DNA from: an uncultured Candidatus Saccharibacteria bacterium
Lineage (GTDB): Bacteria; Patescibacteriota; Minisyncoccia; UBA6257; GWB1-50-10
NCBI GenBank assembly: GCA_964495575.1
Contig: CAZBVS010000001.1
Location: 1 to 61,046 of the forward strand
Direction of reading: 5' to 3'
DNA length: 61,046 nt
In this document: in pieces, positions 1 to 57,822 of the stretch
Layout: each line of letters begins with the position of its first letter
How positions within the stretch are numbered: the first letter of the stretch is position 1
The notes under the pieces: generated by a model
Told to the model about the DNA's origin: nothing
Seen by the model: only the letters and a program-made list of their open reading frames with translations
Databases searched by the model: none
Translations under genes and position numbers: made by a program

Positions 1-782
1 TTACTTTCAGAACTGTATTTAAAGTAAGTTCCATTTTTCCACACCAAACTCAACCCCCTTTCAGGGTTTATCATAAAGGTTAATTCTTTACTTTTTGTAT
101 TAAATTTCCATACCCTTGATCTATAAAACTCCGCTGTTTTTTCAGTGATTAATATTTTATTATCAGGAACATATTTAATATCAACATCATTAAAATCAAA
201 GTTTTGTAATAACACTTCATAATTTTTCTCTCCACTATTTTTTAATTCTTCAAAATCAAAAGAAACCAAGCTATTACCCTGATTAGTAGAAACTACTGCA
301 AAAACCTTATCCCCTGACCACGTTATATTTTGAATATAAGAAGGTAATGGGCGCCACACCCTGTCTTCAGTATCAAAAACCCCCCAGCTTGGAGATTTGG
401 GGTCACCAAACGAAATCAACACCTTATCGTTCGTATAATTTTTACGTATTCTATTTATTCCATTAAATTCTCTTCCTGATACTTCTGGATCAGGACCCGG
501 CTTAGCAGAAAATATTTTTCCAGTAGGGGTTATATATAATACCTCGCTAGTAGTAGAGTCCTCCCAAAAATCAAATACATTTTTATCTTCATCAGAAAGT
601 CTTGTTATTGTAAGACCTTCTTCTTGGGTTTGAGATGTGCTCGTGCTTGTTTTTAATTTCCCGTCATTAATATCCGGTGGTGATACAGGCTCTTTATCTG
701 AGGGTTTTAATATTAAAATTAAAACCACCGCAAAAATTACCAACACAGAGATAATAATTATTATTTTTGTTCTTTTTTTCAT
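1..782 (-). CDS. hypothetical membrane-anchored protein; N-terminal 260 codons, C-terminus lies beyond the window edge
   Basis: Not in the ORF track because there is no stop in the window. ATG at 782-780. My hand translation (MKKRTKIIIIISVLVIFAVVLILILKPSDKEPVS...VWKNGTYFKYSSES) stays open to nt 1. One N-terminal hydrophobic helix, then a beta-strand-rich W/G-containing region. Sits 17 nt downstream of the previous gene in the same orientation. Confidence 0.6.
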   Translation of the reverse strand, partial: MKKRTKIIIIISVLVIFAVVLILILKPSDKEPVSPPDINDGKLKTSTSTSQTQEEGLTITRLSDEDKNVFDFWEDSTTSEVLYITPTGKIFSAKPGPDPEVSGREFNGINRIRKNYTNDKVLISFGDPKSPSWGVFDTEDRVWRPLPSYIQNITWSGDKVFAVVSTNQGNSLVSFDFEELKNSGEKNYEVLLQNFDFNDVDIKYVPDNKILITEKTAEFYRSRVWKFNTKSKELTFMINPERGLSLVWKNGTYFKYSSES

Positions 783-798
783 GAATACTATTTAATTA

Positions 799-1842
799 TT
801 ATTGGCACGTATTTAATCCATCCAGATCAGCATATTTCCAACTATCCGTATGTATGTCAGTTTTCCAGGCATAAGGAACACATTTTACTCCATCATCCCC
901 TCCCGGATTTCCAGGGTCACCATTCATAGGGTAATATGGTGCTTTGTAATAAACACCCCCATTCTGGATTGTTATTTCATCCCATTCATCCCATTCGTCT
1001 TCACAGGTGTTACAAACAGGCACACTAATTGTTTCTTTTGTAACTCCCTCACAAATAACTTGACCTTCCGCAGTGCAACTGGGATTAATTCCTTCTGGAC
1101 AATTTACTACTATATTATCTGCTTGAGTTCCGCAATCATGAACCATTGTTCCTGTTCGGTTGTGTTTTACACACTTTGGGTCCATATTTTCTTTTATTGT
1201 TTGATTTTCTTCATTATAGCAATAAGGTTGAGTTTCTTCTCCTTCTCCCACAACAAACTTTTCTCCATTTACCGGACAATTAGACACAGTTTCTTCCGAA
1301 CAAACATTTGATTCGACACAACAACTCCACTCCCCTTCCACATTTTGTTCCGGGTTTTCTCCTTCTTCACAAGGCTCAAGGTTTGGGTATTGAGCACAGG
1401 ATGCGCCTGTTATATTAGTACTACCCTTTTCAAAACTTGAAACCCCTTTTATTTTCTCCCCATCCTGAGTTGCATACTGAGGGTTACTTAGCTTAGTTAA
1501 CTGAGGGTTCACCGTATTTAATATTACATAAGCCCCCAACAAAAGAACCAAACCGGAAATAGCGGAGACGATAATATCTTTTCCTTTATTTTTTTTATTT
1601 ATTGCTCCAGAAACAGCGTACATTATTCCTCCAATTACAATCACAAGAACTGCAGCTATACCCCCCAACACAATTGCCGTCTTGTAAAATTTATTAATTG
1701 TTCCTGAAATATCGTTCCCTGAAAGATTTTCATAACCAGTGATTTTTATAGGTTCATTACCAACGTCAGCCGCGTTTACCACAGCAAACATTACAAAGAA
1801 AAACAAAATTATAAATAACAGTGTAGATATTTTTTTAATCAT
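799..1842 (-). CDS. VirB2/TrbC-like T4SS pilin module fused to a large Cys-rich, acidic extracellular domain
   Basis: Signal peptide (...FAVVNA), then two hydrophobic helices split by a basic loop (GGIAAVLVIVIGGIMYAVSGAINKKNKGKDIIVSAISGLVLLLGAYVILNTV). This pattern matches the three small pilin-like ORFs at 56947-58191. About 220 further residues contain about 16 Cys. Overlaps the upstream gene by 8 nt. Confidence 0.65.
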   Translation of the reverse strand: MIKKISTLLFIILFFFVMFAVVNAADVGNEPIKITGYENLSGNDISGTINKFYKTAIVLGGIAAVLVIVIGGIMYAVSGAINKKNKGKDIIVSAISGLVLLLGAYVILNTVNPQLTKLSNPQYATQDGEKIKGVSSFEKGSTNITGASCAQYPNLEPCEEGENPEQNVEGEWSCCVESNVCSEETVSNCPVNGEKFVVGEGEETQPYCYNEENQTIKENMDPKCVKHNRTGTMVHDCGTQADNIVVNCPEGINPSCTAEGQVICEGVTKETISVPVCNTCEDEWDEWDEITIQNGGVYYKAPYYPMNGDPGNPGGDDGVKCVPYAWKTDIHTDSWKYADLDGLNTCQ

Positions 1843-2521
1843 TGATTTCTAATCTTAAATTTGTTTTAGCTGATTCCATTGGGTTGTTTAAATTAGAAAC
1901 CCAACCCGTGACTATAGTTTTAGTATTTATCAAAGATTTTGAATTTCCTATTTTTAAATTTAAAATATTACCCCTTTCAACATATTCTTTAGCGTTTATT
2001 ACCTTCCAAACAAAATTTAAATCATTTAAATTATTAACATTTAAAAAGTATGGAATAGATCTAATTGTTTTTTCTTCTCCTAAATTAATAGACTTATTTG
2101 GAGATGGGTAATCAACCACTATTTCATATGAAGAAATCGGAATTTTAATAGATTTTTCTAGAACTTTTTCTCCTTCTTCAATTCTTAATTTTATAAAATA
2201 TTCTTCTCCTACTTGCTTATTTATTTCAAAATTAATTTTATTTTCTCCCGCCCCTCTTTTTATTAAATTATTATTGTTATACCAAAAAAAATTTAAATTA
2301 GAATAATCTTTTATTTTATTATTTTCTAAAACAGTAGCCGAAACATTTATTTTTGAGTTTGGGGTAGCCTTAGGCTTACCTTGATAATTTGAAGGATAAA
2401 AGTTGTCAGCTTCCCAGGTAATAATTACCTCAGATCCATTTTCTGCTTTTACAATATTAACTCCTACCCCTACTAAAGTAGTTATTACCAAACTTATTAA
2501 TATTAATTTATATATTTTCAT
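1835..2521 (-). CDS. secreted hypothetical protein of the T4SS-like operon
   Basis: N-terminal signal or anchor (LILISLVITTLVGVGVNIVKA), beta-rich N/K/E composition. Translationally coupled to the downstream pilin-fusion gene. Confidence 0.6.
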   Translation of the reverse strand: MKIYKLILISLVITTLVGVGVNIVKAENGSEVIITWEADNFYPSNYQGKPKATPNSKINVSATVLENNKIKDYSNLNFFWYNNNNLIKRGAGENKINFEINKQVGEEYFIKLRIEEGEKVLEKSIKIPISSYEIVVDYPSPNKSINLGEEKTIRSIPYFLNVNNLNDLNFVWKVINAKEYVERGNILNLKIGNSKSLINTKTIVTGWVSNLNNPMESAKTNLRLEIND

Positions 2522-2548
2522 ACTATTTTCTATTATAAAATATTTTTA

Positions 2549-2923
2549 TTAACCATTCTTTTCTTCGTTTTTTTCTTCATCTTCTTCATCTTCTTCATCC
2601 TCATCTTCTTTTTCAGAATCTATATCTATTTCCATATTATGTATTACTACTTCTATTATAAACGAAGTTGTAACAGTGGGTATAATTGGTAAAAAGTTTG
2701 ATATCTGTTTCATTATCTGTCTTTTTAAACCCCAAGGTGTTTTTTCTCCCCCCTTTTTACCCAACCACCAGCTTGTTACAAAGCTTGATACGGATTGTAG
2801 TGGGGTTGCTAATAAATATCCCAACCCAGTCATATCAAGAAGTGCTGCCACCCCGTCTACGCTTAACCACAACAACACACCAATTACTATCTCAGAGGCG
2901 CTAAACTTTTTATATTCACTCAT
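2549..2923 (-). CDS. small membrane protein with poly-acidic C-terminal tail (T4SS-like operon)
   Basis: Hydrophobic segments (IVIGVLLWLSV..., LPIIPTVTTSFIIEVVI) followed by DSEKEDEDEEDEEDEEKNEEKNG. Start overlaps the virB4 stop by 8 nt. Confidence 0.55.
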   Translation of the reverse strand: MSEYKKFSASEIVIGVLLWLSVDGVAALLDMTGLGYLLATPLQSVSSFVTSWWLGKKGGEKTPWGLKRQIMKQISNFLPIIPTVTTSFIIEVVIHNMEIDIDSEKEDEDEEDEEDEEKNEEKNG

Positions 2924-4664
2924 TTTTTCGAAGTTCTAATAACTGCTCTGGGTCGGTTGTTATAATCTTATCCTCTGTGTAAGACGGAATTATCTTTATT
3001 GCCACGTGCTTTAATCCTACAAAGAACAATCCTTCTCCCACCTCCGCCTCCATCAAAAACTGTCTCTCGCTCCTCGTAAGATCAAATGTGTCCGCCAACA
3101 CTTTAATACTTGAAGGAGATTGTTTCATAAGAAGCTGCAGAGCGGAGTTAGTAACAATAGGTTTTCCATACTTTGAATCCATAAAATCTTCAACGTTTTG
3201 AGTTATAGTTGTGAGTCCTAAGTAATATTTCCTGGCTCTTTTAGCTAATCTAAACAAGAATGAGGCGCTATCTTCATATTCCATCATCCACCAAGCTTCA
3301 TCTATAATCAATAATCTTCTTTTTAGATTTGCTCTAATAAGACTCCATACAAAATTCAAAACTATATACATTGCAATAGGCCTCAACTCTTCTTCCAAGT
3401 CTCTTATTGAAAACACAATAAACCTATTTGTCATATCTACATCTGTAGGAGAGTTTGTAAAGCCTGAATAAGAACCACTTACATATTTTTCAAGTCTTTG
3501 AGCAAGTTTACTCCCTCCCTCAGTGTTATCTAATACTGTTTGAAAATCTTCTAATATAGGTGGATCAATATCTTTTTTACCGAAGTTTTCTGCGGTAATA
3601 TCCCGAGCAGCGTAAGTTTCAATAAGAGCTCTATCAATTAATGATTCTTCTTCAGGTTCAATATCACCTAACATTAACTTAATTAATCCAGTTAAATTTA
3701 GAATATGTGATTTAAATACATTAGCCGGATCTTCATCTTCTGGAATTACTGGTATATCAAAAGGATTTATATTATGAGGTGAGGTTAGTGATATTTTAAA
3801 GAAACTACCCCCTACAGCATCAGCTAGCGATTGATATTCTTCCTCCGGGTCTATTACCATTACATCCGTGCCCATCATCAATGTTCTTAATATCTCTAGC
3901 TTAGTAGCGTATGATTTTCCAGCTCCAGACTTAGCAAACACAACCGAGTTAGCATTTTCTAAATCAAAACGATCAAATATTACCAAACCGTTATTATGTA
4001 AATTAACTCCGTACATAATCCCTTCGTCTGAGGTTAGATCAGGTGAAACAAAAGGGAATAAAGAAGATGTTGGACCCGTATTTAAAGGCGTGTGAATCTT
4101 TAATTTATCTTCCCCTAACGGAAGAGTTGTTTTGAACCCTTCCACCTGCCTAAACAAGGCAGGTTTTATATATACCAACTTTGATTCAAGGGTTGAGGTA
4201 ATATCATTTTCAAGAGTGTTCAACTTCTCAATATCAGAGCCATAGATTGTTACATATACTCCAACTTTAAACATTTTTTCTGTTCCTTGCTGAAGAGTAT
4301 TTCTTAGGTTTTCAATATCACGATAAGCTGTTTCTAACTTTGGATTACTTACCAATCCCTTCTCCTCTTCTTCAGATATCTGAGCTTGAATTTCACCCAC
4401 CTTCTTTCTTAATTTTTTCAACGTAGTGGCCGTATCCATAGGATGAATGAATATTGATATATCCATCATCTCAGCCATATTAATAATTGGTGAAAACCAT
4501 CCTGTTGATAGATATCGGGGGTAAGTATAAACAAAGAATGTTTTTACATAATAATTATCAAGCTTTAAATAATTAGAGTTCTCTTTCATTCCAGCAGGAG
4601 CCACAATGTTAGCAATGTTTTCTTCTGATGGATTATATGATTTTGGAATTTTTATTTTAGACAT
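2916..4664 (-). CDS. virB4: VirB4/TrbE-family type IV secretion ATPase
   Basis: Walker A AKSGAGKSYATK, Walker B LLIIDEAWWMM, and the N-terminal motif YLKLDNYYVKTFFVYTYPRYLSTGWFSP typical of Gram-positive-type VirB4 proteins. Confidence 0.85.
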   Translation of the reverse strand: MSKIKIPKSYNPSEENIANIVAPAGMKENSNYLKLDNYYVKTFFVYTYPRYLSTGWFSPIINMAEMMDISIFIHPMDTATTLKKLRKKVGEIQAQISEEEEKGLVSNPKLETAYRDIENLRNTLQQGTEKMFKVGVYVTIYGSDIEKLNTLENDITSTLESKLVYIKPALFRQVEGFKTTLPLGEDKLKIHTPLNTGPTSSLFPFVSPDLTSDEGIMYGVNLHNNGLVIFDRFDLENANSVVFAKSGAGKSYATKLEILRTLMMGTDVMVIDPEEEYQSLADAVGGSFFKISLTSPHNINPFDIPVIPEDEDPANVFKSHILNLTGLIKLMLGDIEPEEESLIDRALIETYAARDITAENFGKKDIDPPILEDFQTVLDNTEGGSKLAQRLEKYVSGSYSGFTNSPTDVDMTNRFIVFSIRDLEEELRPIAMYIVLNFVWSLIRANLKRRLLIIDEAWWMMEYEDSASFLFRLAKRARKYYLGLTTITQNVEDFMDSKYGKPIVTNSALQLLMKQSPSSIKVLADTFDLTRSERQFLMEAEVGEGLFFVGLKHVAIKIIPSYTEDKIITTDPEQLLELRKNE

Positions 4665-4665
4665 A

Positions 4666-5307
4666 TTATTTTCTTTCTTTTTCTATAAACTGAGGATTAT
4701 ATAAATTGTATAATAACTCTGTTAATTCCTCGTCTTTTAATATTTTAACCCTTAACCCCACCTGTTCTAAACCTGACCGAACCTCATCTACTCTGTAATC
4801 TAATTGTTGTATTTTTTTTGCCTCAGACTCTTCTTTGTCTGTTTCTTCTTTAGTGTTTTTCCCAGTTAGAGAATTTATTATTCCTCCTAACCCCTTCTTT
4901 GTTTTTTCTACTACCTTAATAGGTTTATAAGGTACCACCACAAAGAAATTTTTAGTTATAATAGGGTTTTCTTCTACAAAAGATTCTATAAACTTGGCGT
5001 ATTCTTCTATCTGAACTTTTAATAACTCTTTTTTCTCTATATCTATTCTTTCTCTTATCTTTTCTAAATAAGAGTTTATATTTATTTTTCTAGAGTGAAT
5101 AAATATCTGGACCGGGAAATCCAAACCATTCAAAAAATTTTGAAAAGATCCTAATATTATTTCCTGCTCTTCTTCAGATTTTAAACTAAAGTTTATGCCA
5201 TTTACTATAAGTGCTTTTCTTAAAGCACCATTTTTCATGTAAATAACTCCGTTTTCCACCCTATCTACATCTACAAATTTTTGTGTTGCTTTTGTTTTTT
5301 CCGCCAT
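4666..5307 (-). CDS. T4SS-associated protein resembling the extreme N-terminal domain of Gram-positive VirB4-type ATPases (possible split VirB4)
   Basis: FVDVDRVENGVIYMKNGALRKALIVNGINFSLKSEEEQEIILGSFQNFLNGLDFPVQIFIHSRKI resembles, from memory, the N-terminus of Tn916-Orf16/TcpF-type ATPases. Its stop lies 1 nt before the virB4 start. Confidence 0.45.
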   Translation of the reverse strand: MAEKTKATQKFVDVDRVENGVIYMKNGALRKALIVNGINFSLKSEEEQEIILGSFQNFLNGLDFPVQIFIHSRKININSYLEKIRERIDIEKKELLKVQIEEYAKFIESFVEENPIITKNFFVVVPYKPIKVVEKTKKGLGGIINSLTGKNTKEETDKEESEAKKIQQLDYRVDEVRSGLEQVGLRVKILKDEELTELLYNLYNPQFIEKERK

Positions 5308-5343
5308 GTTTTTATTTTAATGTATACTTCATTTAATTCCTAA

Positions 5344-5850
5344 TTATTCTGAATAATCAACCCTCTTTGCTTTCTCCACTTCTCCTGTTAGATGTCTCAC
5401 CGTTTGGTAACGTTCTTGCTGGTCATTTTTTTCTTTATTTTTCTTTAGAAAAGGAATATTTCCGGTAGTTATATTTCTAACCGCTGATTTTATCTTTCCT
5501 TGCAACCCCATATTTTTTCTAACCGCCTTTATTTTTTCTACCGAAGAAGTGTCCAAGGTTGTAGTTTCAATATCCCTTTTCCAAACGTATTTTTTTGGTT
5601 TTTGCCAGAAATTAAGAGCGTGTAGTATTACTTTTGGTAATGGTTGTCCGTTAATTTTTACAAACGCCAAGCTCACTCCCAAACCTCCCGCAAAAATTAG
5701 TATTAAAAATGAGAAAAGAGGAGGAAGCGTATAAAAAGCAAGCACGCTTAATCCTCCAGCCCCCGCAATATACAAAAACTGAGTCAAAGTTAAAGGACCG
5801 ATTATTTTTGCTTTTTTGTCTATAAATTGTGGTACCTGAAACTGAGCCAT
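5344..5850 (-). CDS. PrgI-family (VirB3-like) T4SS membrane protein
   Basis: MAQFQVPQFIDKKAKIIGPLTLTQFLYIAGAGGLSVLAFY... followed by a second hydrophobic helix, the pattern of PrgI/VirB3 analogues. Located upstream of virB4, as in Gram-positive T4SS loci. Confidence 0.6.
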   Translation of the reverse strand: MAQFQVPQFIDKKAKIIGPLTLTQFLYIAGAGGLSVLAFYTLPPLFSFLILIFAGGLGVSLAFVKINGQPLPKVILHALNFWQKPKKYVWKRDIETTTLDTSSVEKIKAVRKNMGLQGKIKSAVRNITTGNIPFLKKNKEKNDQQERYQTVRHLTGEVEKAKRVDYSE

Positions 5851-5855
5851 ATGAT

Positions 5856-6737
5856 TTAATTTAGATTACTTAAATCAATAGTGTTACCTGAAACACTTGG
5901 GTTATTTTTCTTCTTATCTTTATCAATCTTTTTATTTTGCTTCTCAGGCTTACTTGCCGCTTCTTTTTGTTTTTGTGCTTCACCACTCTTATCAGGCTGC
6001 TTCCTAGGCTTATTTTTTTGATTAGCGATGTTTATAAAGCTTTTATCATTATCAGAAGAAGCAGGAGTTCTATACTCACTATAATGAACCGTTCTTTTCT
6101 GATCCTTTTTAGGTGTTTGAACCTTTGCAGAAGGACCATCTTTTTCTTGCTTTTCAAAGAAGTCTCCAAATGAAAATGAGAAATCTTTTTTCTGTTTTGG
6201 TCTCTCTTCCTCTCTTTTTTCTTCTTGGTGAATTACAAAAGGGGTCTCTTTATTTTTTTCTTCAGTTTTTTGACTTTCTTCTTTTTGAAATTCTGATTTA
6301 ATAAACTCTTTATCACCTTTTTGTTCCGGCTTTTCTTTGTGTGATATTTCGATGTTTCCAATTTTCTGATCCGTCTTGTGTTTTATGTTGGCTATGTTTG
6401 TATCCGTTTCTGCTACTGGTGAGTAAATCTCATTAAGTTCATCTAAGAACTGAGAGAATATTTTTTTATCTACCTTATCTGAAATTTGTTCAGCAACTTT
6501 TTTATCTATCTCTGTCTCCTTTAAGATTTTTTCATCTAGCTCTTCTTTATGTATAAACCCATATAGCACAAAAGAAACAAGCTTAAACAACTTCTCTGTT
6601 TTTATTTCATTAAGGTGGTGTTCTTTTGCTATCTGTAACAGAGTTTTTCCATACGCCGGAGAATACAAAGCCTTCCGAAGTTCCATCGGCATATTGTCCC
6701 ACCTTCTATCTATTTTGGCTTTTGGATAAGTAATCAT
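5856..6737 (-). CDS. hypothetical protein with structured N-terminal domain and K/E/Q-rich disordered tail
   Basis: Long ORF in operon register; the C-terminal two thirds is low-complexity charged sequence (KQKKDFSF..., KPRKQPDKSGEAQKQKEAASKPEKQNKK). Confidence 0.55.
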   Translation of the reverse strand: MITYPKAKIDRRWDNMPMELRKALYSPAYGKTLLQIAKEHHLNEIKTEKLFKLVSFVLYGFIHKEELDEKILKETEIDKKVAEQISDKVDKKIFSQFLDELNEIYSPVAETDTNIANIKHKTDQKIGNIEISHKEKPEQKGDKEFIKSEFQKEESQKTEEKNKETPFVIHQEEKREEERPKQKKDFSFSFGDFFEKQEKDGPSAKVQTPKKDQKRTVHYSEYRTPASSDNDKSFINIANQKNKPRKQPDKSGEAQKQKEAASKPEKQNKKIDKDKKKNNPSVSGNTIDLSNLN

Positions 6738-6768
6738 ATTGTTTTATTTATGAATGACGAGCCTTTCT

Positions 6769-8748
6769 CTATTTATCTTTAGTTTCCCCTTCTTTGTCTT
6801 TACCACTTTTTTCTTCAGAAGATCCCGACTTGTCCTCTCCAGAGGACCCCTCTTCCGATCCTTCTTTATAATATGTTCCTCCACCACCTTCAAAGTTAGC
6901 GATTACATTCTTAAACCTCTTTAGCCCTTTTTCATCTCCCAATGTTGTAAGAGCTGCTTTGTATTCTGCTTCGAAATTATCTCTTCCTTTGGAGTCTAGC
7001 TTAGGCTCAATGCTGGACACAAGACCTTTATTTGTTTTAGCTATAGCTTTAGCAATCATTTGTGACGCTTCTTCTAATTTATCCTTTCCAATGCCTAACT
7101 TTTCCTTGCCGCTGAATATATCTTTGAGGGGTATGTCCTTCAAATCTTTTTTAAGTAATTTTCCGTAGAATTTTTCAGCCTCTTCATAAAATGTATCCGT
7201 ATCATCATTTTTTAACGCCTCCATCATTTCTAGTGTCATACCCAACTGTTTCTCAATCTTTTTGAAGGCTCCCTTTTCTCCATAATTCTCAAACAATCTT
7301 TTGTTATCCTCGGTAAGATGTTCTTTAGCATTAATTTTATTGATCTTTCCGTCTTTAGACAGACTTTTTAGAAGCTCTTTCTTCTCGGGTCCGGAAGCTC
7401 CTGGTAATTTGGCCAACTTTCTTTCTGTGCTCCAGCCTTTCATTTTCTTTTGGTACTCACTTGCCACCCCTTTCTTACCCTTGTCTTCAAGTGCGGTTAG
7501 CTGTCCCGCCACCCATGAAGCCGCTTTTCTACTAAACTTACCCGTTCGATTACCAGCCATCTCCCTTGCTTTACCAGCCAATGATTTATCACTTTCCTTA
7601 CCTTTCCTCCTTACTGGATAAGTCACAGCCCTCATAGCGTTTCTCTTAGCAAAGCTTGATGCCTTGCCCTTTGCCCAGCCCTTTGCCCAGCCTCCTGCAG
7701 ATTTAGCGATTCCAATTGCTCCTTTTGCTCCGTTGATTCCCATCTTGTCCGCGGCGTATAATCCGGCGAACATTAAAGCTGCAAGGACAATCATTTGAAT
7801 TCCCTGGTTTAATATTGCTCCTAAAGCAGCGTTTGAACTTGCAAAGTTAGCAGCGGCTGAATTAGCAAAATCTGCGTTTTTTATATTCTCTGCTCCCACT
7901 AACGTGAGGTAAATAAAGAATGACACTGCCGGAGCAAAGAAGGTCCATTTCAAAAAACTTTGCCACCAGTTTTGAAACTGGCTTTGTAGTTGGGGGATTA
8001 CCCATGCCAGCCATACTATCGGAGCAAGAACAAGCAAGAAAGTTAATACAACATAGCGAGCTAACAGCATAAAGGCTAAAGCCCCGAACACAATGGTTGT
8101 TAATCCGGTGAGTACTATGGTAAATATTATGTTTGTGACTCCTATAAGCAACGCGGAGCCCACCCCAATGCTCCCTTGGTTGTCTGGATCTACAGCAGGT
8201 ACTTCATTATCACTTGTTCCAATAACAAGTTTTTGAGGATTAAAAGCTCCCGCTATTGCTCCTGAAATTTGATACCCTCCGTTGCCTGGGTTTAAGAAGA
8301 ATTTAGTTAACGTATTTGAGAAACCGATTATGGGTGTAGCAATAGCCAAGCTAAAGTTAACAATTAAAGCCGCCGCAATAAGTTTAGGTAATAGTTTCTT
8401 CACCCCATACTGTTTGAACTGTACTATTGTGGCAAAACCTATAATGATTATTGCCAACACAAAACCCAAGTTTGCTAAATCACGAGTTATTTTCCAACCT
8501 TCTGAAATTAAGGTATTTGAATCATTTAAATTGTTTATATTATATTGCAGCATTACATCTGCTAAACTAGCCATCCAGTTTAGCAATGTACCTATAAAGA
8601 ACCTAAATATCTGAGCTATTACGTTTGTTATGGTAGAAGCAATATTTGCCGCCAAACCTGCGTTAGCAACTAACGGCAATGAAAACACTAATAAAGATAT
8701 TCCTAGTATCTTTAAAAGTTTTTTTCTTTTTTTAATAAAACTTTTCAT
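6769..8748 (-). CDS. TrbL/VirB6-like polytopic T4SS channel protein with long hydrophilic C-terminal domain
   Basis: Signal-like N-terminus, at least 6 long hydrophobic segments across residues about 20-340, then a roughly 300-aa K/E-rich soluble tail. Size, topology and position match VirB6/TrbL components. Confidence 0.6.
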   Translation of the reverse strand: MKSFIKKRKKLLKILGISLLVFSLPLVANAGLAANIASTITNVIAQIFRFFIGTLLNWMASLADVMLQYNINNLNDSNTLISEGWKITRDLANLGFVLAIIIIGFATIVQFKQYGVKKLLPKLIAAALIVNFSLAIATPIIGFSNTLTKFFLNPGNGGYQISGAIAGAFNPQKLVIGTSDNEVPAVDPDNQGSIGVGSALLIGVTNIIFTIVLTGLTTIVFGALAFMLLARYVVLTFLLVLAPIVWLAWVIPQLQSQFQNWWQSFLKWTFFAPAVSFFIYLTLVGAENIKNADFANSAAANFASSNAALGAILNQGIQMIVLAALMFAGLYAADKMGINGAKGAIGIAKSAGGWAKGWAKGKASSFAKRNAMRAVTYPVRRKGKESDKSLAGKAREMAGNRTGKFSRKAASWVAGQLTALEDKGKKGVASEYQKKMKGWSTERKLAKLPGASGPEKKELLKSLSKDGKINKINAKEHLTEDNKRLFENYGEKGAFKKIEKQLGMTLEMMEALKNDDTDTFYEEAEKFYGKLLKKDLKDIPLKDIFSGKEKLGIGKDKLEEASQMIAKAIAKTNKGLVSSIEPKLDSKGRDNFEAEYKAALTTLGDEKGLKRFKNVIANFEGGGGTYYKEGSEEGSSGEDKSGSSEEKSGKDKEGETKDK

Positions 8749-8757
8749 TATTTGTTC

Positions 8758-10518
8758 CTAATCATTTAATAATCCGTTACAACTTGATAATTTTAAATCT
8801 ATAGTCTCTTCCCTTTCTTCTACCCGAGCTTTTATTGTTTCAACATCCGAAGATATATTTCTTACCTCTTCTATCAAATCATAGAAATCACTTTGATATT
8901 TTTGTAATCTAAATGACTCTCCACTTTCTATAGTGGAGGTAACGTGTGAAACGTCGTAATCGTACCTGTTATCTATTTCTACTAATACTGAATTCCAGTC
9001 ATTCATATATAAATCGATAGAGTTAAATTTATTCCTAATCAAGGCTTTATCACTCTCTATGTTACTAAGGTATAACTCGGCCTTTTCTAATTTACTTTCC
9101 GCAGCAATTATTTCTTCTGAAGAAGCTTCCCCATCATTTTCTAAGCTCTCTAAAACCTCCTCTCTACATGATATCAATCCTTCTGTGGTAGTGGTCATAG
9201 AAAACGCTTCTTCGTTAACCTCTTTTGCTTCATGGAGGGTAGTGCTGGCAGAGGTTAGACTGATGCTGTCATTGCTATAATTTGCATGTTTAGTTTCTAG
9301 CTCACTCCGTAATTCTTGAAGATTTTCTACTTTTTGGTCTACAAAATCTTCTGTAGAGGTTGTGTTTATTAAATCCCTGTTTCTTTCAAAGTCATCAATT
9401 GCCCCCTCTAATTTTTCTGTTTGTTCCTCCTTAGCCATCTTATCTTTCAAGGCACCCTTTACTTCATCTGCAGCATTAGCAGCAGATTTTGCTGCATAAC
9501 AAGCAGCTCTTTCTCCTCCTTCTAGCTCACTACACTTTGCACTTTTATCCCCACTGGTTAGGTAGGTTAATCCATTTACTGTCTCTCTTGTTAACCTATT
9601 TATCCCTGCATTTATGATGGCGGCAATATAAGAACCGACCCCTTCTGTATTAAGTAAGGCATCTATATCAGATCCGAGAGCTTTAGTTGTAATTGATTTA
9701 GAAATTTGACTTGGGGTTACAATCTCAGTATTAGAACATTTCCAGTCTGATCCCAGTGGTGAATCCTCTCTTCCGTTCCATGAGTAACCATCAGGTGTTT
9801 CTGTGTAATTAAACTCTTCATGACCGGAAGTCACAGAAAAACCTTGATTATAAGTTTCATTTCCTGATGCTACCGCTCCATCATTTTTAGCAACCCATTC
9901 CGTACAACGTTTTGAGTTTAAGAAGCCTCCCGAATTTGAAACCTCTAGCTTACTTACGGTCTCTTTCTCTTCCTGTTTATTCATTACCTCTTGCTGAGTT
10001 AAAAATTTTATTCCCTGAGGGTTGTTTTGAGGTTTTAAGCTTTCTTGATAAGCTATCCACCCACCGTCTTGAAAGTTATCACCGAAAGCTTCTATATTTT
10101 CTACAATATCATCAAGAGTACACTGGACTCTCTCTCTAAAAACAGGCTGTTGCATATCAAACTTTAATTGAAATCTTAGGTCTTCATAACACAACTCTGA
10201 AGCTCCTAACTCTATAGCGGTATCTCCCACTGCTGCCTGAAACGAGTCTTCTAAAACACCGTCGAAGTTTTTAATAAATTTTGGGTCTCCATTGCCTTGA
10301 ATATACTCTATAATTCTATTGGTAGCCATGCTTAATAAGCGGTGTTTTAATGTCTGTAAAATAGTTTGAAGTACATTATCTACAATCCACGTACCTACTT
10401 CAGCTAGATCAATATTGAGATCAACTATCCCTAAAACAGCGTGAGCTCTTAGTGGATAAACCATTCCACTAAAAAGTATTAAAACTAAAAATAAAATTGA
10501 TATATTGGTTTTAAACAT
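8758..10518 (-). CDS. secreted hypothetical protein with Cys-containing N-domain and acidic coiled-coil C-terminal half
   Basis: Signal peptide MFKTNISILFLVLILFSGMVYPLRAHA. The C-terminal half is heptad-like and E/S/L-rich. Overlaps the upstream gene by 1 nt. Confidence 0.6.
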   Translation of the reverse strand: MFKTNISILFLVLILFSGMVYPLRAHAVLGIVDLNIDLAEVGTWIVDNVLQTILQTLKHRLLSMATNRIIEYIQGNGDPKFIKNFDGVLEDSFQAAVGDTAIELGASELCYEDLRFQLKFDMQQPVFRERVQCTLDDIVENIEAFGDNFQDGGWIAYQESLKPQNNPQGIKFLTQQEVMNKQEEKETVSKLEVSNSGGFLNSKRCTEWVAKNDGAVASGNETYNQGFSVTSGHEEFNYTETPDGYSWNGREDSPLGSDWKCSNTEIVTPSQISKSITTKALGSDIDALLNTEGVGSYIAAIINAGINRLTRETVNGLTYLTSGDKSAKCSELEGGERAACYAAKSAANAADEVKGALKDKMAKEEQTEKLEGAIDDFERNRDLINTTSTEDFVDQKVENLQELRSELETKHANYSNDSISLTSASTTLHEAKEVNEEAFSMTTTTEGLISCREEVLESLENDGEASSEEIIAAESKLEKAELYLSNIESDKALIRNKFNSIDLYMNDWNSVLVEIDNRYDYDVSHVTSTIESGESFRLQKYQSDFYDLIEEVRNISSDVETIKARVEEREETIDLKLSSCNGLLND

Positions 10519-11321
10519 TAAGTCTGTACATTATTTTTTAATTCCTCATATCTTTCGTTGATAATAGAGTGTAATTTACCACTTTCCTGAAGTATTATAG
10601 GTAAGTCTTGTATAGCTAGGTAAGCTTTCAAGGGATCATCCTCTCTATTTTTCATTGTTTTGTACATAGTCAATTTTTTTTGCCAAAGATTTAACATTTG
10701 AAGATGGTAGCTTGCCCAGTTTTCTGGAACCTCTATTTTTAATAAATCATCTATATGCTGGGGGACTGTATTAATAAATTTATCTAGTATTTCAGAATTA
10801 TTATCTTCTAGAAAACCTCTTAAAGCAGAAACTGAATTTTCGTTTTTTAATTCTTCAAAATTATTCCATAGAGTTTGATCTAGTTCTTCTATATATTCTA
10901 TTTCTCTTTCATCTGAAGTATTATCAACAACTTTTATATCCTTTTCTTTAAACTGAGGGTAATCAACCGTCTTATCTATATTTTCCAACCCTTCGATAGC
11001 GTTTTCTTGAGACTCAATTCCTCCACCCTCATCAACACTTTCTAATAATTTTATTGCATAAGAATCTACAAACCCCTTTGTTAAATTATCATTATCTTCA
11101 TCCCCTTCTTCGTTCTGGTCGTCTGTGTTTTTTTCAGGTAACCTTAAAAAGGAGCCATCATTTCCCTGCTTATAGCTGAGACTGGCATTTTGATCCTCCG
11201 GGTTAAAATTTTTATCCGGATCACCACTTTTTTTACTCTGATTATCTGATAATAAACCAACACTAATTACCACACCCAATAATAAAATTATTAGACCAAG
11301 TGTTTTTCTTGTGTTTAACAT
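10518..11321 (-). CDS. membrane-anchored hypothetical protein; first gene of the T4SS-like operon
   Basis: N-terminal anchor LGLIILLLGVVISVGLL followed by an acidic soluble domain. Preceded by an AT-rich divergent intergenic region. Confidence 0.55.
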   Translation of the reverse strand: MLNTRKTLGLIILLLGVVISVGLLSDNQSKKSGDPDKNFNPEDQNASLSYKQGNDGSFLRLPEKNTDDQNEEGDEDNDNLTKGFVDSYAIKLLESVDEGGGIESQENAIEGLENIDKTVDYPQFKEKDIKVVDNTSDEREIEYIEELDQTLWNNFEELKNENSVSALRGFLEDNNSEILDKFINTVPQHIDDLLKIEVPENWASYHLQMLNLWQKKLTMYKTMKNREDDPLKAYLAIQDLPIILQESGKLHSIINERYEELKNNVQT

Positions 11322-11389
11322 AAAATTTATTTGATTTATTATTATTATACATTATTTATATAGTATTTTTAATCAACACCATTATTTTT

Positions 11390-12031
11390 ATGAAGGCTTT
11401 AAATAAAATAGTGAGCTCAAAAACAGGGTTAATTTTATTAACCATTTTTTTAACTATTTTCAGTTCTATAAAAATTTATCCTGATAGCTTAATATTATCT
11501 AACATATTTTCAACCTTGTTAGCCCTTCTATTCTTTTTATTTGTTCCTGTTTTAATAATCAAAAAGGTGCTTAAAAAAGATTTATTAAGTTTTGGCTTTA
11601 ATTTTCCTAAAAAAACAAAAAAAGCCATTTTTTTGATTTTAATTTTCTTTTTAATATTCATCCCTATTCTTTTTTACTTAAGTAATCAGCTTAATTTTCA
11701 ATCTTATTATCTCAACCAACGAGGATTAAGTGCTGACAACTTTCTTATCTTAGGTGTTATTTTATCAGCAATATACTTTTTTTCTGAAGAATTTTTGTTT
11801 AGAGGCTTTCTTTTCTTCTTTTTATATAAAAAAATAGGCCCCCATACTTTTTGGGTGTTAAGCTTATTATTTGCCTTTCTGCATATAACCAAACCTATTC
11901 CTGAAATAATCGTTTCATTTTTTATAAGTATTACTTTGTGTTATTTATCATATAAAACCAAATCATTTCTACCGGCTTTTATCCTCCATTTTCTAATGGC
12001 TGTATTTACAAACTTTCTAATTCTTTTTTAA
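11390..12031 (+). CDS. CPBP-family (CAAX/Abi) intramembrane glutamic endopeptidase
   Basis: Polytopic protein with the motifs SEEFLFRGFLF (EExxxR), FAFLH and ILHFLMAVFTN. Confidence 0.75.
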   Translation: MKALNKIVSSKTGLILLTIFLTIFSSIKIYPDSLILSNIFSTLLALLFFLFVPVLIIKKVLKKDLLSFGFNFPKKTKKAIFLILIFFLIFIPILFYLSNQLNFQSYYLNQRGLSADNFLILGVILSAIYFFSEEFLFRGFLFFFLYKKIGPHTFWVLSLLFAFLHITKPIPEIIVSFFISITLCYLSYKTKSFLPAFILHFLMAVFTNFLILF

Positions 12032-28597: not shown

Positions 28598-29428
28598 TTA
28601 ACTTTTTAACCTTTCTTTGTATGCTTTAGTTACAGATATATCACTATGACCAAGTATCTCTTTAGCTTTTCCTAGATCTGTTCTTTTAAATAAGGAAGCA
28701 GCAAAGGAGTCCCTTAACGTCTGAGGGGTTATATTTGATATTCCAGCTTTCCTACCAAATCTATTAAGCAGCCTTTGAACCGAACGAGGACTTATTCTCC
28801 CTAGCACTCTTCCTTTTTTAGTTAAAGAAACAAACAAAGCACTTTCTTGATCATCTCTCTGTTTTAAGTAATCTTTTATTTTCTTCACCGCTAATTTTGA
28901 TAAATGAATTTTTCTCTCTTTATTGTTTTTGTCTTTTATAACAAGTATTCCCGAATCTAAATCAATTTTCTTATCTAATCTACATAACTCAGATACCTTA
29001 ATTCTAGTAGATATCAGAGTTTCAAAAATTGCTCTGTTTCTTTTTTCCCTTAATCCTTGATTTCTTAAATCTCTTAGCTTTTTTATTTCTTCCTTGCTTA
29101 ATACCTCCAGTGTCTCTTTTTGATGTTTAAACAATCGTACTTCTTCAAGGTTTAAAACCTTATCCTTTTTATTTTTAATAAACTTTAAAAAACTTCTTAA
29201 GCCTATTAAATAGTAGTTCTGGGTTGTTTTTTTAATTTTTCTTCCTTTTAGCACATTTTTGTATCTTTTAATCTTTCTTAGACTAATATCTTCCAATCTT
29301 TTTACTTTCATAGAGCTTAAGAAATTATTAACGTACCGTTTATAGTTTTTAATTGTTGTTTTATCTAACCCCTGGGTTTTTAAGTAACGTAAGTACTCTT
29401 TTTTAAGATTTTTTATATTTTCCATCAA
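28598..29428 (-). CDS. tyrosine site-specific recombinase (XerC/XerD-like integrase family)
   Basis: N-terminal SAM-like domain, catalytic region RIKVSELCRL, TPQTLRDSFA, LGHSDISVTKAY. The first conserved His reads Gln. Confidence 0.8.
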   Translation of the reverse strand: MMENIKNLKKEYLRYLKTQGLDKTTIKNYKRYVNNFLSSMKVKRLEDISLRKIKRYKNVLKGRKIKKTTQNYYLIGLRSFLKFIKNKKDKVLNLEEVRLFKHQKETLEVLSKEEIKKLRDLRNQGLREKRNRAIFETLISTRIKVSELCRLDKKIDLDSGILVIKDKNNKERKIHLSKLAVKKIKDYLKQRDDQESALFVSLTKKGRVLGRISPRSVQRLLNRFGRKAGISNITPQTLRDSFAASLFKRTDLGKAKEILGHSDISVTKAYKERLKS

Positions 29429-29511
29429 CTAAATTATACCTTAAAACCTGTCGCAAAACATGTGTAAAAAACTTGTATTGGGTTTTAATATGGTATAATG
29501 TTTACATTGAT

Positions 29512-30555
29512 ATGGATATCGAAGATATATACTCCCTGACCAGGGACATGTTAAAAAAAGCCAATTTTTGGCTGAGTTTGCTTATTTTATCAATCTTAGT
29601 GGTAAACGGGTTTCTTGTAAGCTCAATTAATGACAGCGACCCTTATAACAGTCGTTGGAGTTTTGGAGGACCGGTAAAAACAAGTTTAGATACCGCTACC
29701 TCTCTTGATTTTCAAACAACTACATTTGAAAGCTCAGCATCACAAAATGAAGAAGGTGGTGCTTCTTTTGTATATTTAGAAGACGGTTCAGCCGTGGGAG
29801 CTTCTCATACATACTCAAACGTTATCCCTACTCGACAAGGTCTTATGAAATACAAGGTGGGTAAAGGAGACACCTTGTCTGAGATAGCGGCTCAGTTTGG
29901 GGTTACCTTAGACACAATAAAATGGGCTAACCTAGATGTAGGATCCATGATCTCTCCTGGTGATGAACTAACGATTCTTCCTGTTTCTGGGATTCTTTAT
30001 GAAGTACAGCCCGAAGACACTCTAGAAAGTGTAGCTGCTAAATACAGAATAAATCCCGAACTTATCAAAAAATACAACCCCGAATACCAAAAACTTTTTG
30101 AGTCTCCAAGGCAGATGGTGATTCTTCCATACGCAAAACCACTTAATAAGTGGTCTTATGTTAACCAATATCAAGAAAATCTTCCTAATCTTGATAACTA
30201 CTTTACTCTTCCTGCTCGTGGATGGAACTGGGGTGAACTTCATTATTACAACGCTATTGATATTGCTGCTGACTGTGGTAAATCTGTCTATGCCGCCGCA
30301 GAAGGTCTTGTGATAGAAGAATCTGATAATAATCGTTGGAATGAAGGGTATGGAAACTACCTCTTTATAGAACACCCTAACGGTACCAAGACAAAATACG
30401 CCCACACCTTAGAAAACTTAGTTTCCGAAGGAGAATATGTACTTCAAGGAGAGGAAATAGCTTTGATAGGTAACACAGGTAATACAGACGGACCAACCGG
30501 TTGCCATCTTCACTTTGAGGTATACGGCGCCCGAAACCCATTTGCTGTGAAATAA
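29512..30555 (+). CDS. LysM-domain M23-family metallopeptidase (peptidoglycan hydrolase)
   Basis: N-terminal anchor FWLSLLILSILVVNGFLV, two LysM repeats (YKVGKGDTLSEIAAQFGV, YEVQPEDTLESVAAKYRI), M23 motifs NAIDIAA and HLHFEV. Start set at ATG 29512, downstream of the tataat at 29494-29499. Confidence 0.85.
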   Translation: MDIEDIYSLTRDMLKKANFWLSLLILSILVVNGFLVSSINDSDPYNSRWSFGGPVKTSLDTATSLDFQTTTFESSASQNEEGGASFVYLEDGSAVGASHTYSNVIPTRQGLMKYKVGKGDTLSEIAAQFGVTLDTIKWANLDVGSMISPGDELTILPVSGILYEVQPEDTLESVAAKYRINPELIKKYNPEYQKLFESPRQMVILPYAKPLNKWSYVNQYQENLPNLDNYFTLPARGWNWGELHYYNAIDIAADCGKSVYAAAEGLVIEESDNNRWNEGYGNYLFIEHPNGTKTKYAHTLENLVSEGEYVLQGEEIALIGNTGNTDGPTGCHLHFEVYGARNPFAVK

Positions 30556-55648: not shown

Positions 55649-56944
55649 ATGGATAAGAATAAAGTTATTATACTTGCTATACTTGGAAGTTTAGCAGCTT
55701 TAGTTTTGATTTTTGTAGTTGGGTTCTTTTTAAACAGAGGACCAGGTGAAGACTCTATTTATAATACTCAGGCTCAACTTGATGTCTGGGCTGTTTCTGA
55801 TAGAAAGGCAGCTTATGAAAAAGCTATCTCCGAGTTCAACAAAACTTACCCTAACATTACAGTTAACTACCGGCGTTTTGAAAATACCAATGAATACGAA
55901 GAAACCCTCCTTAATTCTTTAGCGGCTGGAGAAGGGCCAGATATTTTTGTCATTAAAAACAGTGATATCTTAAGGAAGGCTAACAAAACATTTCCTGTCC
56001 CGGAATCTCAGTATTCCTTATCAAATTTAAGGAATGATTTTCCTGAGGTAGTTGAACAAGACTTTTATTTCAACAACAAGATTTACGCTCTTCCAGCCTC
56101 TGTTGATACTCTTGCCATGATATATAACAAGAGTCTCTTTAACGAAGCTGCTATAGTTTATCCTGCTAAGAACTGGGAAGAGTTTAAAACTCAGACTAAA
56201 AAACTTACTAAATTCAATGATCAATCTGGCGATGTATCCCGAGCCGGAGCTGCTATAGGAGGTGCAGATAATATTAAGTATTCTTCTGATCTCCTCTCCC
56301 TTCTTATGATGCAGTCTGGGGCAGACATGGTAAGTGATAATTATGACTCAGCTACCTTTAGCTCCGAACCGGGTAGAGAAGCATTAGACTTTTATACTCA
56401 ATTTTCAAACCCTAACGCAGATTTATATACCTGGGATAGCTATCTTTCTCAAGATTTTGAATCGTTTGCCCGGGAAAACAACGCGGTTGTCTTCGGTTAT
56501 TCCACCGATTTAAAAGATTTAAAGGATAGAAATGTGTTTTTAGAGGTGGGCGTTGCCAAAGTACCTCAGATAAAAGAAAACAAAGAAATAGCTATCGCCG
56601 ATTACTTCGGTTACGCAGTTTCTCGACAAACTCGATATCCCACAATAGCTTGGGATTTTGTTAAGGTTCTAACCCTCGACTCTTCTGCTATAAGAAGTTA
56701 TCTTGATAACACGAAAAGACCTCCCGCCCTTAAATCTTTAATCCAGGAGTATAAAAATGATCAGGAACTTGGAGTTTTTGCAAAACAAGCTTTAATTGCC
56801 GAGTCCTGGAGGAAGCCTGATTTTGAGAAGACAGATAAGATTTTTGATCAGATGATAAAGGCAGTGGGAGATGAAGGAAAGGCCTCATACAGGATTTTAA
56901 GAAACGCAGAGGATGAAGTTTCTAATTTATTAAAATCTTTATAA
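55649..56944 (+). CDS. ABC-transporter substrate-binding protein, family 1 (sugar type)
   Basis: N-terminal anchor, size about 430 aa; patterns LDVWAVSD...FNKTYPNITVNY and PDIFVI are typical of SBP_bac_1. Confidence 0.6.
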   Translation: MDKNKVIILAILGSLAALVLIFVVGFFLNRGPGEDSIYNTQAQLDVWAVSDRKAAYEKAISEFNKTYPNITVNYRRFENTNEYEETLLNSLAAGEGPDIFVIKNSDILRKANKTFPVPESQYSLSNLRNDFPEVVEQDFYFNNKIYALPASVDTLAMIYNKSLFNEAAIVYPAKNWEEFKTQTKKLTKFNDQSGDVSRAGAAIGGADNIKYSSDLLSLLMMQSGADMVSDNYDSATFSSEPGREALDFYTQFSNPNADLYTWDSYLSQDFESFARENNAVVFGYSTDLKDLKDRNVFLEVGVAKVPQIKENKEIAIADYFGYAVSRQTRYPTIAWDFVKVLTLDSSAIRSYLDNTKRPPALKSLIQEYKNDQELGVFAKQALIAESWRKPDFEKTDKIFDQMIKAVGDEGKASYRILRNAEDEVSNLLKSL

Positions 56945-57378: not shown

Positions 57379-57387
57379 AATAAACAT

Positions 57388-57759: not shown

Positions 57760-57822
57760 TTAAAAGTATTTTAATAAAAGGTCGTTTGAAAATATAGTCG
57801 AATTAACAAATTAAAATTAACA

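Follow-up and report, generated by a model that had tools for sequence, protein, structure and literature searches.

In Patescibacteria, type IV secretion systems (T4SSs) have been surveyed through their ATPase VirB4, which was found in 2,417 of 3,035 genomes; the 2,425 VirB4 proteins form a Patescibacteria clade nested in the mating-pair-formation class FATA [MPF-FATA; PMC12102498, Quinonero-Coronel et al. 2025]. TrsD is the most abundant companion of VirB4 in that survey, and VirB3/PrgI, VirB6 and VirB2-like pilins, the latter often in arrays, are encoded near virB4. VirB8 and VirB1 are rarely detectable, and only 109 relaxases were counted in the 3,035 genomes [PMC12102498]. In Paceibacteria, the virB4 neighborhood is rich in dnaA, dnaN, rnpA, and ksgA [PMC12102498]. 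Transposon sequencing (Tn-seq) of Southlakia epibionticum identified the T4SS genes and a pilin array as essential for epibiotic growth and comEC as dispensable, and neither a coupling protein nor a relaxase was recognized in this system [PMC10633639, Wang et al. 2023]. As to what the T4SS moves, reviews float effector delivery or the uptake of nucleotides or DNA [PMC11665869; PMC12857230]. Here, we describe a T4SS/pilus operon at the left end of a stretch of 61,046 nucleotides (nt), referred to as the window, from an uncultured Candidatus Saccharibacteria bacterium (contig CAZBVS010000001.1), and compare it with these systems.

Positions 1-11321 of the window are filled by eleven co-directional open reading frames (ORFs) on the minus strand. 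They very probably encode a chromosomal, relaxase-less T4SS/pilus machine of the Patescibacteria clade, derived from MPF-FATA and arranged in the Paceibacteria-type gene order. Loci of this kind, and in this gene arrangement, are already known from work described in 2023-2025 [PMC10633639; PMC12102498]. As judged from profile matches, the encoded set comprises a translocon of VirB6-like, PrgI/VirB3, and VirB4 proteins together with VirB2-type pilins, one long and three short; six lineage-specific proteins are co-encoded throughout. A first-pass annotation made from the sequence alone had proposed a non-conjugative, "domesticated" T4SS/pilus. The profile searches and the origin-region flanks in relatives agree with this proposal, which equals the published conclusion [PMC12102498; PMC10633639]. 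The translocation core comprises the following genes (aa, amino acids; TM, transmembrane):

2916-4664, minus strand: VirB4 ATPase, C-terminal part (582 aa; central and P-loop domains), by NCBIfam, Pfam, and PDB profile matches.
4666-5307, minus strand: TrsD-like protein, the VirB4 N-terminal domain as a separate gene (213 aa), by NCBIfam and alignment.
5344-5850, minus strand: PrgI/VirB3-like membrane protein (168 aa), by PF12666 (E 2.7e-10; 41.1 bits versus a gathering score of 27).
6769-8748, minus strand: g09, putative VirB6/TrbL-like polytopic membrane protein (659 aa), by TM-like segments and family-level matches.

The ATPase part matches the NCBIfam model conju_CD1110 with an E value of 3.1e-117 (392.8 bits versus a cut-off of 325) over model positions 183-734 of 752, and Pfam P-loop_TraG with 5.8e-26. 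Its Walker A (AKSGAGKS, aa 244-251) and Walker B (LLIIDE, aa 451-456) motifs are both intact. Among PDB structures, the Thermoanaerobacter VirB4 C-terminal domain (4AG5) is matched at 6e-46 and R388 TrwK more weakly (2.6e-5). The TrsD-like gene lies one base upstream of the ATPase gene, in another frame. Its product matches NCBIfam models NF045975 (positions 100-244, E 4.4e-12), TIGR00929 (positions 18-181, 1.5e-6), TrsD NF041427 (2.9e-6), and CD1110 (positions 8-118, 1.2e-5), and aligns with aa 38-145 of an unsplit 797-aa clostridial VirB4 (E 1e-7); an orthologue in the relative L033 carries a precomputed PF26593 TraC-like entry. Taken together, these matches indicate a split VirB4, with the N-domain in a TrsD-like protein and the ATPase in another. 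The first-pass annotation had considered only four genes assignable; the gene at 4666-5307 adds a fifth part.

For comparison, a scan of one genome per species yielded 32 loci; the closest relative with flanks is L033. In the BLAST comparison of the 32 loci, VirB4 is split in 29, Altiarchaeota-type loci included, and on this ground a frameshift or pseudogene reading of the split was rejected. The only three loci without the split (L018, L021, and L026, two of them labelled Peribacteria) have a VirB4 ORF that extends about 125-140 aa further at its N terminus, and BLAST detected no separate TrsD-like ORF in them.

The PrgI-like protein aligns with positions 14-147 of the mycoplasma fused VirB4 model. 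For g09 the evidence is of a different kind. The protein has seven TM-like segments within aa 14-327 and, behind them, about 320 aa of charged tail; neither Pfam nor NCBIfam gave a match to the window copy itself. TrbL is the top Pfam family among the 54 g09 homologues scanned, with matches in 6 of the 54 (best E 1.4e-5; 25.4 bits versus a gathering score of 25.9), and TrbL_4 matches 2 of the 54. Of 55 homologues, about 30 carry a precomputed PF19590 entry, which for the orthologue with 89% identity is named TrbL_3 and marked weak. An hhalign comparison of the g09 family with one clostridial VirB6 of the CD1112 family gave no match. Hence g09 is probably VirB6, an identity suggested by topology and family-level similarity and not proven. 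With respect to the first-pass annotation, profile-HMM searches, its suggested check, uphold the VirB4 ATPase with Walker A and B motifs, the PrgI/VirB3-like protein, and the VirB2-like pilin module above curated cut-offs; its TrbL/VirB6 with a tail of roughly 300 aa agrees in topology, tail, and family-level TrbL matches, but has no direct match of the window protein.

Pilin genes are found in the operon and at a second site in the window:

799-1842, minus strand: VirB2-type pilin-module protein (347 aa), by PF18895 T4SS_pilin (E 1.1e-7; 32.2 bits versus a gathering score of 26.6).
56947-58191, plus strand: short-pilin array of three tandem genes (VirB2/TrbC type), by a phmmer search from the operon pilin and then Pfam.
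56947-57378, plus strand: short pilin 1 (143 aa), PF18895 33.8 bits, TrbC 20.4 bits.
57388-57759, plus strand: short pilin 2 (123 aa), PF18895 48.0 bits, TrbC 35.3 bits.
57823-58191, plus strand: short pilin 3 (122 aa), PF18895 33.5 bits, TrbC 29.1 bits.

In the operon pilin, a signal peptide precedes a pilin hairpin of two helices (aa 44-110), and an extracellular Cys-rich extension of 235 aa with 16 Cys follows; TM-like segments lie at aa 5-23, 56-74, and 90-108. The family alignment shows the conserved motifs W.YPYYP...C..YA and DL..L..C. Weaker matches are to TrbC (E 0.009) and to the NCBIfam Mbov_0395 pilin-like family (E 0.002), and a PDB profile search with the Cys-rich extension gave no match. 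All three short pilins score above the gathering score of PF18895 (26.6) and two of them above that of TrbC (27.9). The short-pilin array, overlooked in the first-pass annotation, is situated 45 kb away from the operon; the gene immediately before it encodes a solute-binding protein (55649-56944) and itself follows gyrA. The array probably encodes the main pilus subunits of the operon's system.

In seven of the loci, the operon-pilin orthologue carries an extra C-terminal domain and is 468-561 aa long (L003:4540-5997, L007:7863-9479, L008:7799-9205, L010:13908-15395, L013:14135-15607, L014:14114-15745, and L017:6319-8004). This domain has invariant H-x6-D and H-x-H motifs (TSLTGG.H....HY.G.A.D ... 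HIHV), a weak Peptidase_M15_4 match (E 0.008), and a profile match to the Hedgehog N-terminal/LAS zinc-peptidase fold (E 0.002). Such similarity suggests that the LAS-type domain may act as a peptidoglycan peptidase, joined to a VirB2-like protein, in a VirB1-like role. The operon pilin of the window is without the LAS/M15-like domain.

The remaining operon genes encode the six lineage-specific proteins:

1-782, minus strand: g01, last operon gene, first 260 of about 380 aa; N-terminal TM segment, variable linker, and beta-rich domain, by translation.
1835-2521, minus strand: g03 (228 aa), N-terminal hydrophobic helix and two predicted Ig/PKD/BiPBP_C-like beta-sandwiches, by AlphaFold2 and Foldseek.
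2549-2923, minus strand: g04, small membrane protein (124 aa) with two weak TM segments and an acidic tail, by ORF list and hydrophobicity.
5856-6737, minus strand: g08 (293 aa), soluble; no hydrophobic segment, found between VirB6 and PrgI in 14 loci.
8758-10518, minus strand: g10 (586 aa), signal peptide or anchor, Cys-containing domain, and coiled-coil-like tail, by alignments.
10518-11321, minus strand: g11 (267 aa), first operon gene; N-terminal TM segment, acidic linker, and helical-looking C-terminal domain, by alignment.

For five of these proteins (g01, g04, g08, g10, and g11), no match of the protein itself in Pfam, NCBIfam, or PDB sequences stood up to inspection: nothing was found in Pfam or PDB for g01 and g11, in Pfam or NCBIfam for g04, or in any of the three for g08. 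PDB profile searches with g01, g03, g08, g09, g10, g11, and the Cys-rich domain of the pilin returned nothing or coiled-coil and low-complexity noise. The sixth, g03, is confidently predicted to be a tandem immunoglobulin (Ig)-like surface protein whose N-terminal helix is a signal peptide or an anchor. The AlphaFold2 model, built with 124 sequences, reaches a pLDDT of 94.6 and a pTM of 0.80. Foldseek gave generic Ig/FN3/PKD matches only (SorCS2 PKD, Hoc, SiiE, and S-layer Sap; E 1e-7 to 1e-5). Within the family, BiPBP_C is found in 12 of 124 members and PKD-type families in 5 of 124. An exhaustive search collected 865 clusters at E ≤ 1e-3, all about 225 aa long, while a word-index homologue search gave 2 proteins. 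The size, position, and bitopic topology of g03 had suggested VirB8; this candidate was rejected on the confident model, which consists of two Ig-like sandwiches and not of an NTF2 fold.

The other five can be described from alignments. In g01, a TM-like segment (aa 7-25) and a variable linker precede a beta-rich extracellular domain of about 300 aa; orthologues in 11 loci are 377-401 aa long. The g04 gene overlaps the VirB4 stop by 8 nt, and in 15 loci an orthologue comes immediately downstream of virB4. In g08, the N-terminal domain (about 115 aa) is helical; the Lys/Glu-rich tail behind it is probably disordered but keeps short motifs (P.VIH, FSFS, VHYSE.RT, and a C-terminal GN.IDL) with strong conservation from genome to genome, a pattern suggestive of linear motifs for interaction such as an adaptor or a substrate might carry. 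The conserved domain of g10 (aa 45-320), with invariant C110/C133/C205/C261 and a PQNN motif, precedes the long tail; only 19 homologues were found, no Pfam family accounts for the domain, and one homologue has PKD-type entries. An attempt to identify g10 from its structure (AlphaFold2 with 19 sequences, pLDDT 54.7; Foldseek noise, best E 0.37) led to no assignment. Five of the six lineage-specific proteins presumably act at the cell envelope, because they contain hydrophobic segments. The first-pass annotation had taken all these products for secreted or anchored proteins without a recognizable motif. The former holds for five and fails for g08, and the latter is right for the five without a family match and has given way for g03, where the structure prediction and Foldseek search it recommended yielded an answer; the same procedure gave a poor model for g10.

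The full 11-gene order is conserved in at least 12 Patescibacteria genomes at 22-84% aa identity: g11, g10, VirB6, g08, PrgI, TrsD-like, VirB4, g04, g03, and then the pilin and g01 in either order. The labels of these genomes include Jorgensenbacteria, Magasanikbacteria, Paceibacterota, Parcubacteria, and metagenome-assembled genomes (MAGs) loosely labelled "Saccharibacteria." In 8 of the at least 12 genomes the cluster starts right after rsmA, which g11 adjoins in 8 loci. VirB4 is 50-84% identical to Patescibacteria MAG proteins, 30-35% to VirB4 of monoderm plasmids, and 30-32% to Altiarchaeota proteins, all of these being pairwise similarities. In L033, VirB6 is 89% and g01 88% identical to the window copies, and g01 (380 aa) is the last operon gene. 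The genes beyond it are jag (R3H), yidC, and rnpA, located on the opposite strand, with dnaA next; L012 has the same genes plus dnaN and a class A penicillin-binding protein gene. In at least eight genomes the locus occupies the same fixed place, between rsmA and the dnaA region. Collectively, these data argue for an origin-proximal chromosomal location, with rsmA/ksgA present in the window and jag, yidC, rnpA, dnaA, and dnaN known from L033 and L012. In the relatives, the operon is transcribed toward the rnpA/dnaA region.

The window ends at nt 1 with the contig, which cuts the g01 ORF. The operon had been described as running past this edge. It does so in that g01 is cut there; in L033, no further operon gene follows g01. 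Extending leftward by way of L033 and L012, as the first-pass annotation had advised, led into jag, yidC, rnpA, and dnaA and to no relaxase, coupling protein, or integrase; the synteny comparison that it also advised found the whole order kept, usually beside rsmA.

Within the operon, the junctions from left to right are +16, -8, +27, -8, +1, +36, +5, +31, +9, and -1 nt, that is, gaps of 1-36 nt and overlaps of 1-8 nt. The layout is as first annotated, with eleven packed minus-strand genes at these coordinates, except that the largest gap is 36 and not 35 nt. Upstream of g11 lie two features:

11322-11389, no strand: divergent AT-rich intergenic region of 68 nt between the operon and a CAAX-protease gene.
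11372-11344, minus strand: candidate promoter TTAAAA-17-TATAAT, by consensus scan (10 of 12 matches).

The promoter is listed as a candidate because promoter-like sites were not enriched over shuffles in the consensus scan. A terminator scan found no terminator-like site offering an obvious break inside the operon. The tight spacing and the overlaps would fit a single transcript with coupled translation that starts in the intergenic region. With respect to base composition, the operon is native to the contig: its GC content is 0.345 versus 0.361 in the rest of the window, and GC at third codon positions (GC3) is 0.15-0.35 versus 0.26-0.35. The plus-strand GC skew is negative over 1-32 kb, where genes lie on the minus strand, and positive from about 34 kb, where most lie on the plus strand; GC skew therefore tracks the coding strand.

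The operon is bordered by genes for a CAAX protease, RsmA, tRNA-Arg, tRNA-Ser, an HtrA-like protease, and LeuS. That the borders are housekeeping genes (rsmA, tRNAs, leuS) instead of integrase or att features had been recognized from the start. The divergent CAAX (Rce1-like) protease gene (11390-12031, plus strand) lies between rsmA and the operon, likewise in L012; at this position L033 has a co-directional 167-aa ORF (6861-7364) without a family match. The only recombinase in the window is a Xer-like tyrosine recombinase of 276 aa (28598-29428, minus strand), 17 kb from the operon. Beside it, a divergent gene (29473-30555, plus strand) encodes an M23 peptidase with LysM domains, the only recognized cell-wall hydrolase, 17-18 kb from the operon. 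The window is otherwise housekeeping in character: LeuRS, ProRS-like, PNPase, TsaD, a class I aminoacyl-tRNA synthetase (33247-35421), NusA, FtsK, RecA, RNase J, TrpRS, S1, and GyrA.

Scanning about 50 window ORFs with profile libraries revealed no relaxase, VirD4, VirB11, soluble lytic transglycosylase (SLT), or VirB7/9/10 family, and thus the absences listed in the first-pass annotation, which had named VirB1 for the transglycosylase, recur among the scanned ORFs. Relaxase families are also absent from the flanks of the relatives; oriT was not searched for. No type IV coupling protein (T4CP) or integrase is encoded near the operon in the window or in the 10-kb flanks of L012 and L033. FtsK (41305-43440), the only FtsK-like protein in the window, has the alpha, motor, and gamma domains of chromosomal FtsK; its gamma domain had been noted correctly. 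Where an integrative and conjugative element (ICE) would have integrase/att borders, a variable site, and foreign composition, this locus has a fixed position and native GC and GC3.

VirB4-dependent extraction of pilins and the R388/pKM101 structures are established T4SS biology, and the mechanism proposed here builds on them. By analogy, PrgI and the TrsD-like protein would tether a VirB4 hexamer to the VirB6 channel, and ATP hydrolysis would pull pilins from the membrane and polymerize them into a filament or conduit at the cell surface. The part that spans the wall may be built or decorated by the Ig-like, beta-rich, and coiled-coil proteins. Such a machine would serve contact and exchange with the host bacterium, by protein export or by uptake of host material, and not conjugation. 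The requirement for epibiotic growth is known only from Tn-seq in Southlakia epibionticum [PMC10633639].

What such a machine might move, if anything, can be read in several ways. One tentative possibility is a translocator for effectors, which would be injected or released into the host bacterium without the help of a T4CP, as in the Bordetella Ptl and Brucella VirB systems. Protein-secreting T4SSs without a T4CP exist [PMC12102498], it has been suggested that the Southlakia system "may instead export proteins" [PMC10633639], and g08, which is soluble, partly disordered, motif-bearing, and encoded inside the operon, could be a substrate or an adaptor; against this, no effector, secretion signal, or chaperone was identified. 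The opposite direction, import of host DNA, nucleotides, or other macromolecules in the manner of Helicobacter ComB or archaeal Ced, would feed a nucleotide-auxotrophic organism, and we consider it unlikely. It would agree with the lack of a recognizable coupling protein or relaxase, with split-VirB4 relatives in Altiarchaeota, and with a weak partial similarity of VirB4 to the CedB (E 1.9e-11) and CedD (2.8e-5) models. Moreover, the T4SS has been proposed as a nucleotide route since comEC is dispensable and the T4SS essential [PMC11665869; PMC12857230]. However, with 43 bits versus a CedB cut-off of 700 there is no Ced equivalog, ComB systems use VirB7-10 homologues, none of which was found here, and uptake via any Patescibacteria T4SS is a proposal only. 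A bolder version of the import idea takes g01, g03, g04, g08, g10, g11, and the Cys-rich pilin as an undescribed envelope superstructure that replaces VirB1, VirB8, and VirD4 and turns the VirB3/4/6 motor into an import "feeding tube." We think this quite improbable. The six co-encoded proteins were found only in patescibacterial loci among those examined here, and, if the idea were true, the tube would draw host nucleotides, lipids, or DNA into the epibiont and place an import-mode T4SS at the core of the Candidate Phyla Radiation lifestyle.

Alternatively, no substrate is moved at all and VirB4 assembles VirB2-type filaments that hold the epibiont, that is, a pilus or adhesion organelle only. 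The four pilin-module genes, the Ig-like and Cys-rich surface domains, which are typical of adhesins, and the lack of a detected T4CP speak for such an organelle; yet type IV pili already serve adhesion and motility in Patescibacteria [PMC12857230; PMC12206443], and a VirB6 channel protein is kept and conserved, which leaves this reading doubtful. By far the least probable is a conjugative element or its decaying remnant, in which case the relaxase, coupling protein, and oriT would have to lie outside the contig and a frameshift would have split VirB4. The contig does end inside the last gene, outside Patescibacteria the VirB4 is most similar to conjugative-plasmid ATPases, and the two VirB4 parts lie one base apart in different frames. 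Nonetheless, in relatives jag, yidC, rnpA, and dnaA come directly after the operon, its position is constant (in the at least eight genomes above), and its composition is native. The split recurs in the 29 of 32 loci, archaeal ones among them, with both parts conserved and the Walker motifs intact, and TrsD is a recognized separate protein [PMC12102498]. The scarcity of relaxases in Patescibacteria (109 in the 3,035 genomes; PMC12102498) points the same way.

Several considerations weigh against a non-conjugative T4SS/pilus machine as described here. The VirB6 assignment comes from weak family-level matches, with neither a direct nor an hhalign match for the window protein. Pilus formation by these pilins is a prediction, and the 235-aa extension of the operon pilin may clash with canonical VirB2 packing. 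Neither a VirB8-like nor a VirB1-like component was detected among the operon products; g03 is Ig-like and not NTF2-like. Transcription as a single operon is inferred from spacing only. The negative results cover 61 kb, and a T4CP or relaxase may be encoded elsewhere in the genome. Finally, the role of the T4SS has been called "completely unknown" even in Saccharibacteria [PMC11665869].

The T4SS is present in approximately 80% of Patescibacteria genomes and is among the few machines shown to be essential for epibiotic life, in the one genetically tractable species. The present locus is one more copy of the published Paceibacteria-type locus and leaves the general picture unchanged. What it adds is a clean, full parts list: a split VirB4, a tandem Ig-like protein, a long Cys-rich pilin, a distant short-pilin array, and five more conserved proteins without a family, four with anchor or signal segments and one soluble. 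Added here are the short-pilin array, the Ig-like identity of g03, and the Cys-rich pilin extension, together with the LAS-type domain in some relatives. The list could steer structural work and, when a Paceibacterium is available in culture, genetics.

How the locus compares with known systems can be followed from the more distant to the nearest. In the loci L027-L032, from Altiarchaeota and related archaeal MAGs, VirB4 is split as here, with an upstream N-domain gene and an ATPase part that is 30-32% identical, and therefore this architecture is common to both domains. There, in contrast, PrgI and the N-domain appear to be fused into a protein of about 300 aa, and BLAST detected none of the other operon genes. 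Equivalence to Ced is not indicated by the scores (CedB 43 bits versus a cut-off of 700, CedD 23 bits versus 600). Pfam and NCBIfam gave no VirB8, VirB9, or VirB10 family match among the operon proteins; no search was aimed at CedA-type proteins specifically. In mycoplasmas, a single protein combines the three parts, and the ICE that encodes it provides integration and transfer functions of its own. The PrgI, TrsD-like, and VirB4 products of the window are collinear with positions 14-147, 100-244, and 287-893 of the single Mbov_0397-family VirB4 model, and the operon pilin weakly matches the Mbov_0395 pilin-like family; scores stay below the cut-offs of the mycoplasma models (VirB4 304 versus 590 bits, pilin 17.7 versus 40).

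The MPF-FATA systems used for comparison were of the CTn2/CD11xx type (plasmid pCDC3875), pCF10 Prg/Pcf, and pGO1 Trs. In addition to a relaxase and a VirD4-type coupling protein, MPF-FATA systems of monoderms possess VirB8-like proteins and a large VirB1 hydrolase of the SLT/CHAP type; they are without VirB2 pilins and are located on mobile elements. The window VirB4 passes the CD1110-family cut-off and the PrgI family is shared, whereas none of their mobility functions was found here. The closest VirB4 proteins on plasmids are CD1110-family proteins of monoderms (30-35% identity). The clostridial plasmid pCDC3875 has a collinear core of VirB6, PrgI, (x), VirB4, and a small ORF, but its VirB4 is unsplit (797 aa) and it encodes VirD4 and an SLT hydrolase; hhalign comparison of the g09, g03, and g08 families with their positional counterparts on this plasmid gave no similarity. 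A separate TrsD upstream of the VirB4 homologue is also present in pGO1 [PMC12102498].

The nearest described systems are those of the Patescibacteria themselves. The Saccharibacteria cluster differs in that its six-gene pilin array is part of the locus, which also encodes an NTF2-like (VirB8-like) protein and has genes for peptidase and lysozyme. Here, the short pilins are encoded 45 kb away, the operon has no VirB8-like or hydrolase gene, and g01, g03, g04, g08, g10, and g11 fill the cluster alongside a pilin with a long Cys-rich extension. The core order, VirB6 ... PrgI, TrsD-like, VirB4, is that of the Southlakia cluster. As in the published Patescibacteria T4SS [PMC12102498; Southlakia SEML1_0006-0019, PMC10633639], VirB4 with an adjacent TrsD-like protein, PrgI/VirB3, a VirB6-like protein, and PF18895 pilins are encoded together, no relaxase or T4CP is located near virB4, and the locus is chromosomal, near ksgA (rsmA) and rnpA/dnaA, as reported for Paceibacteria.

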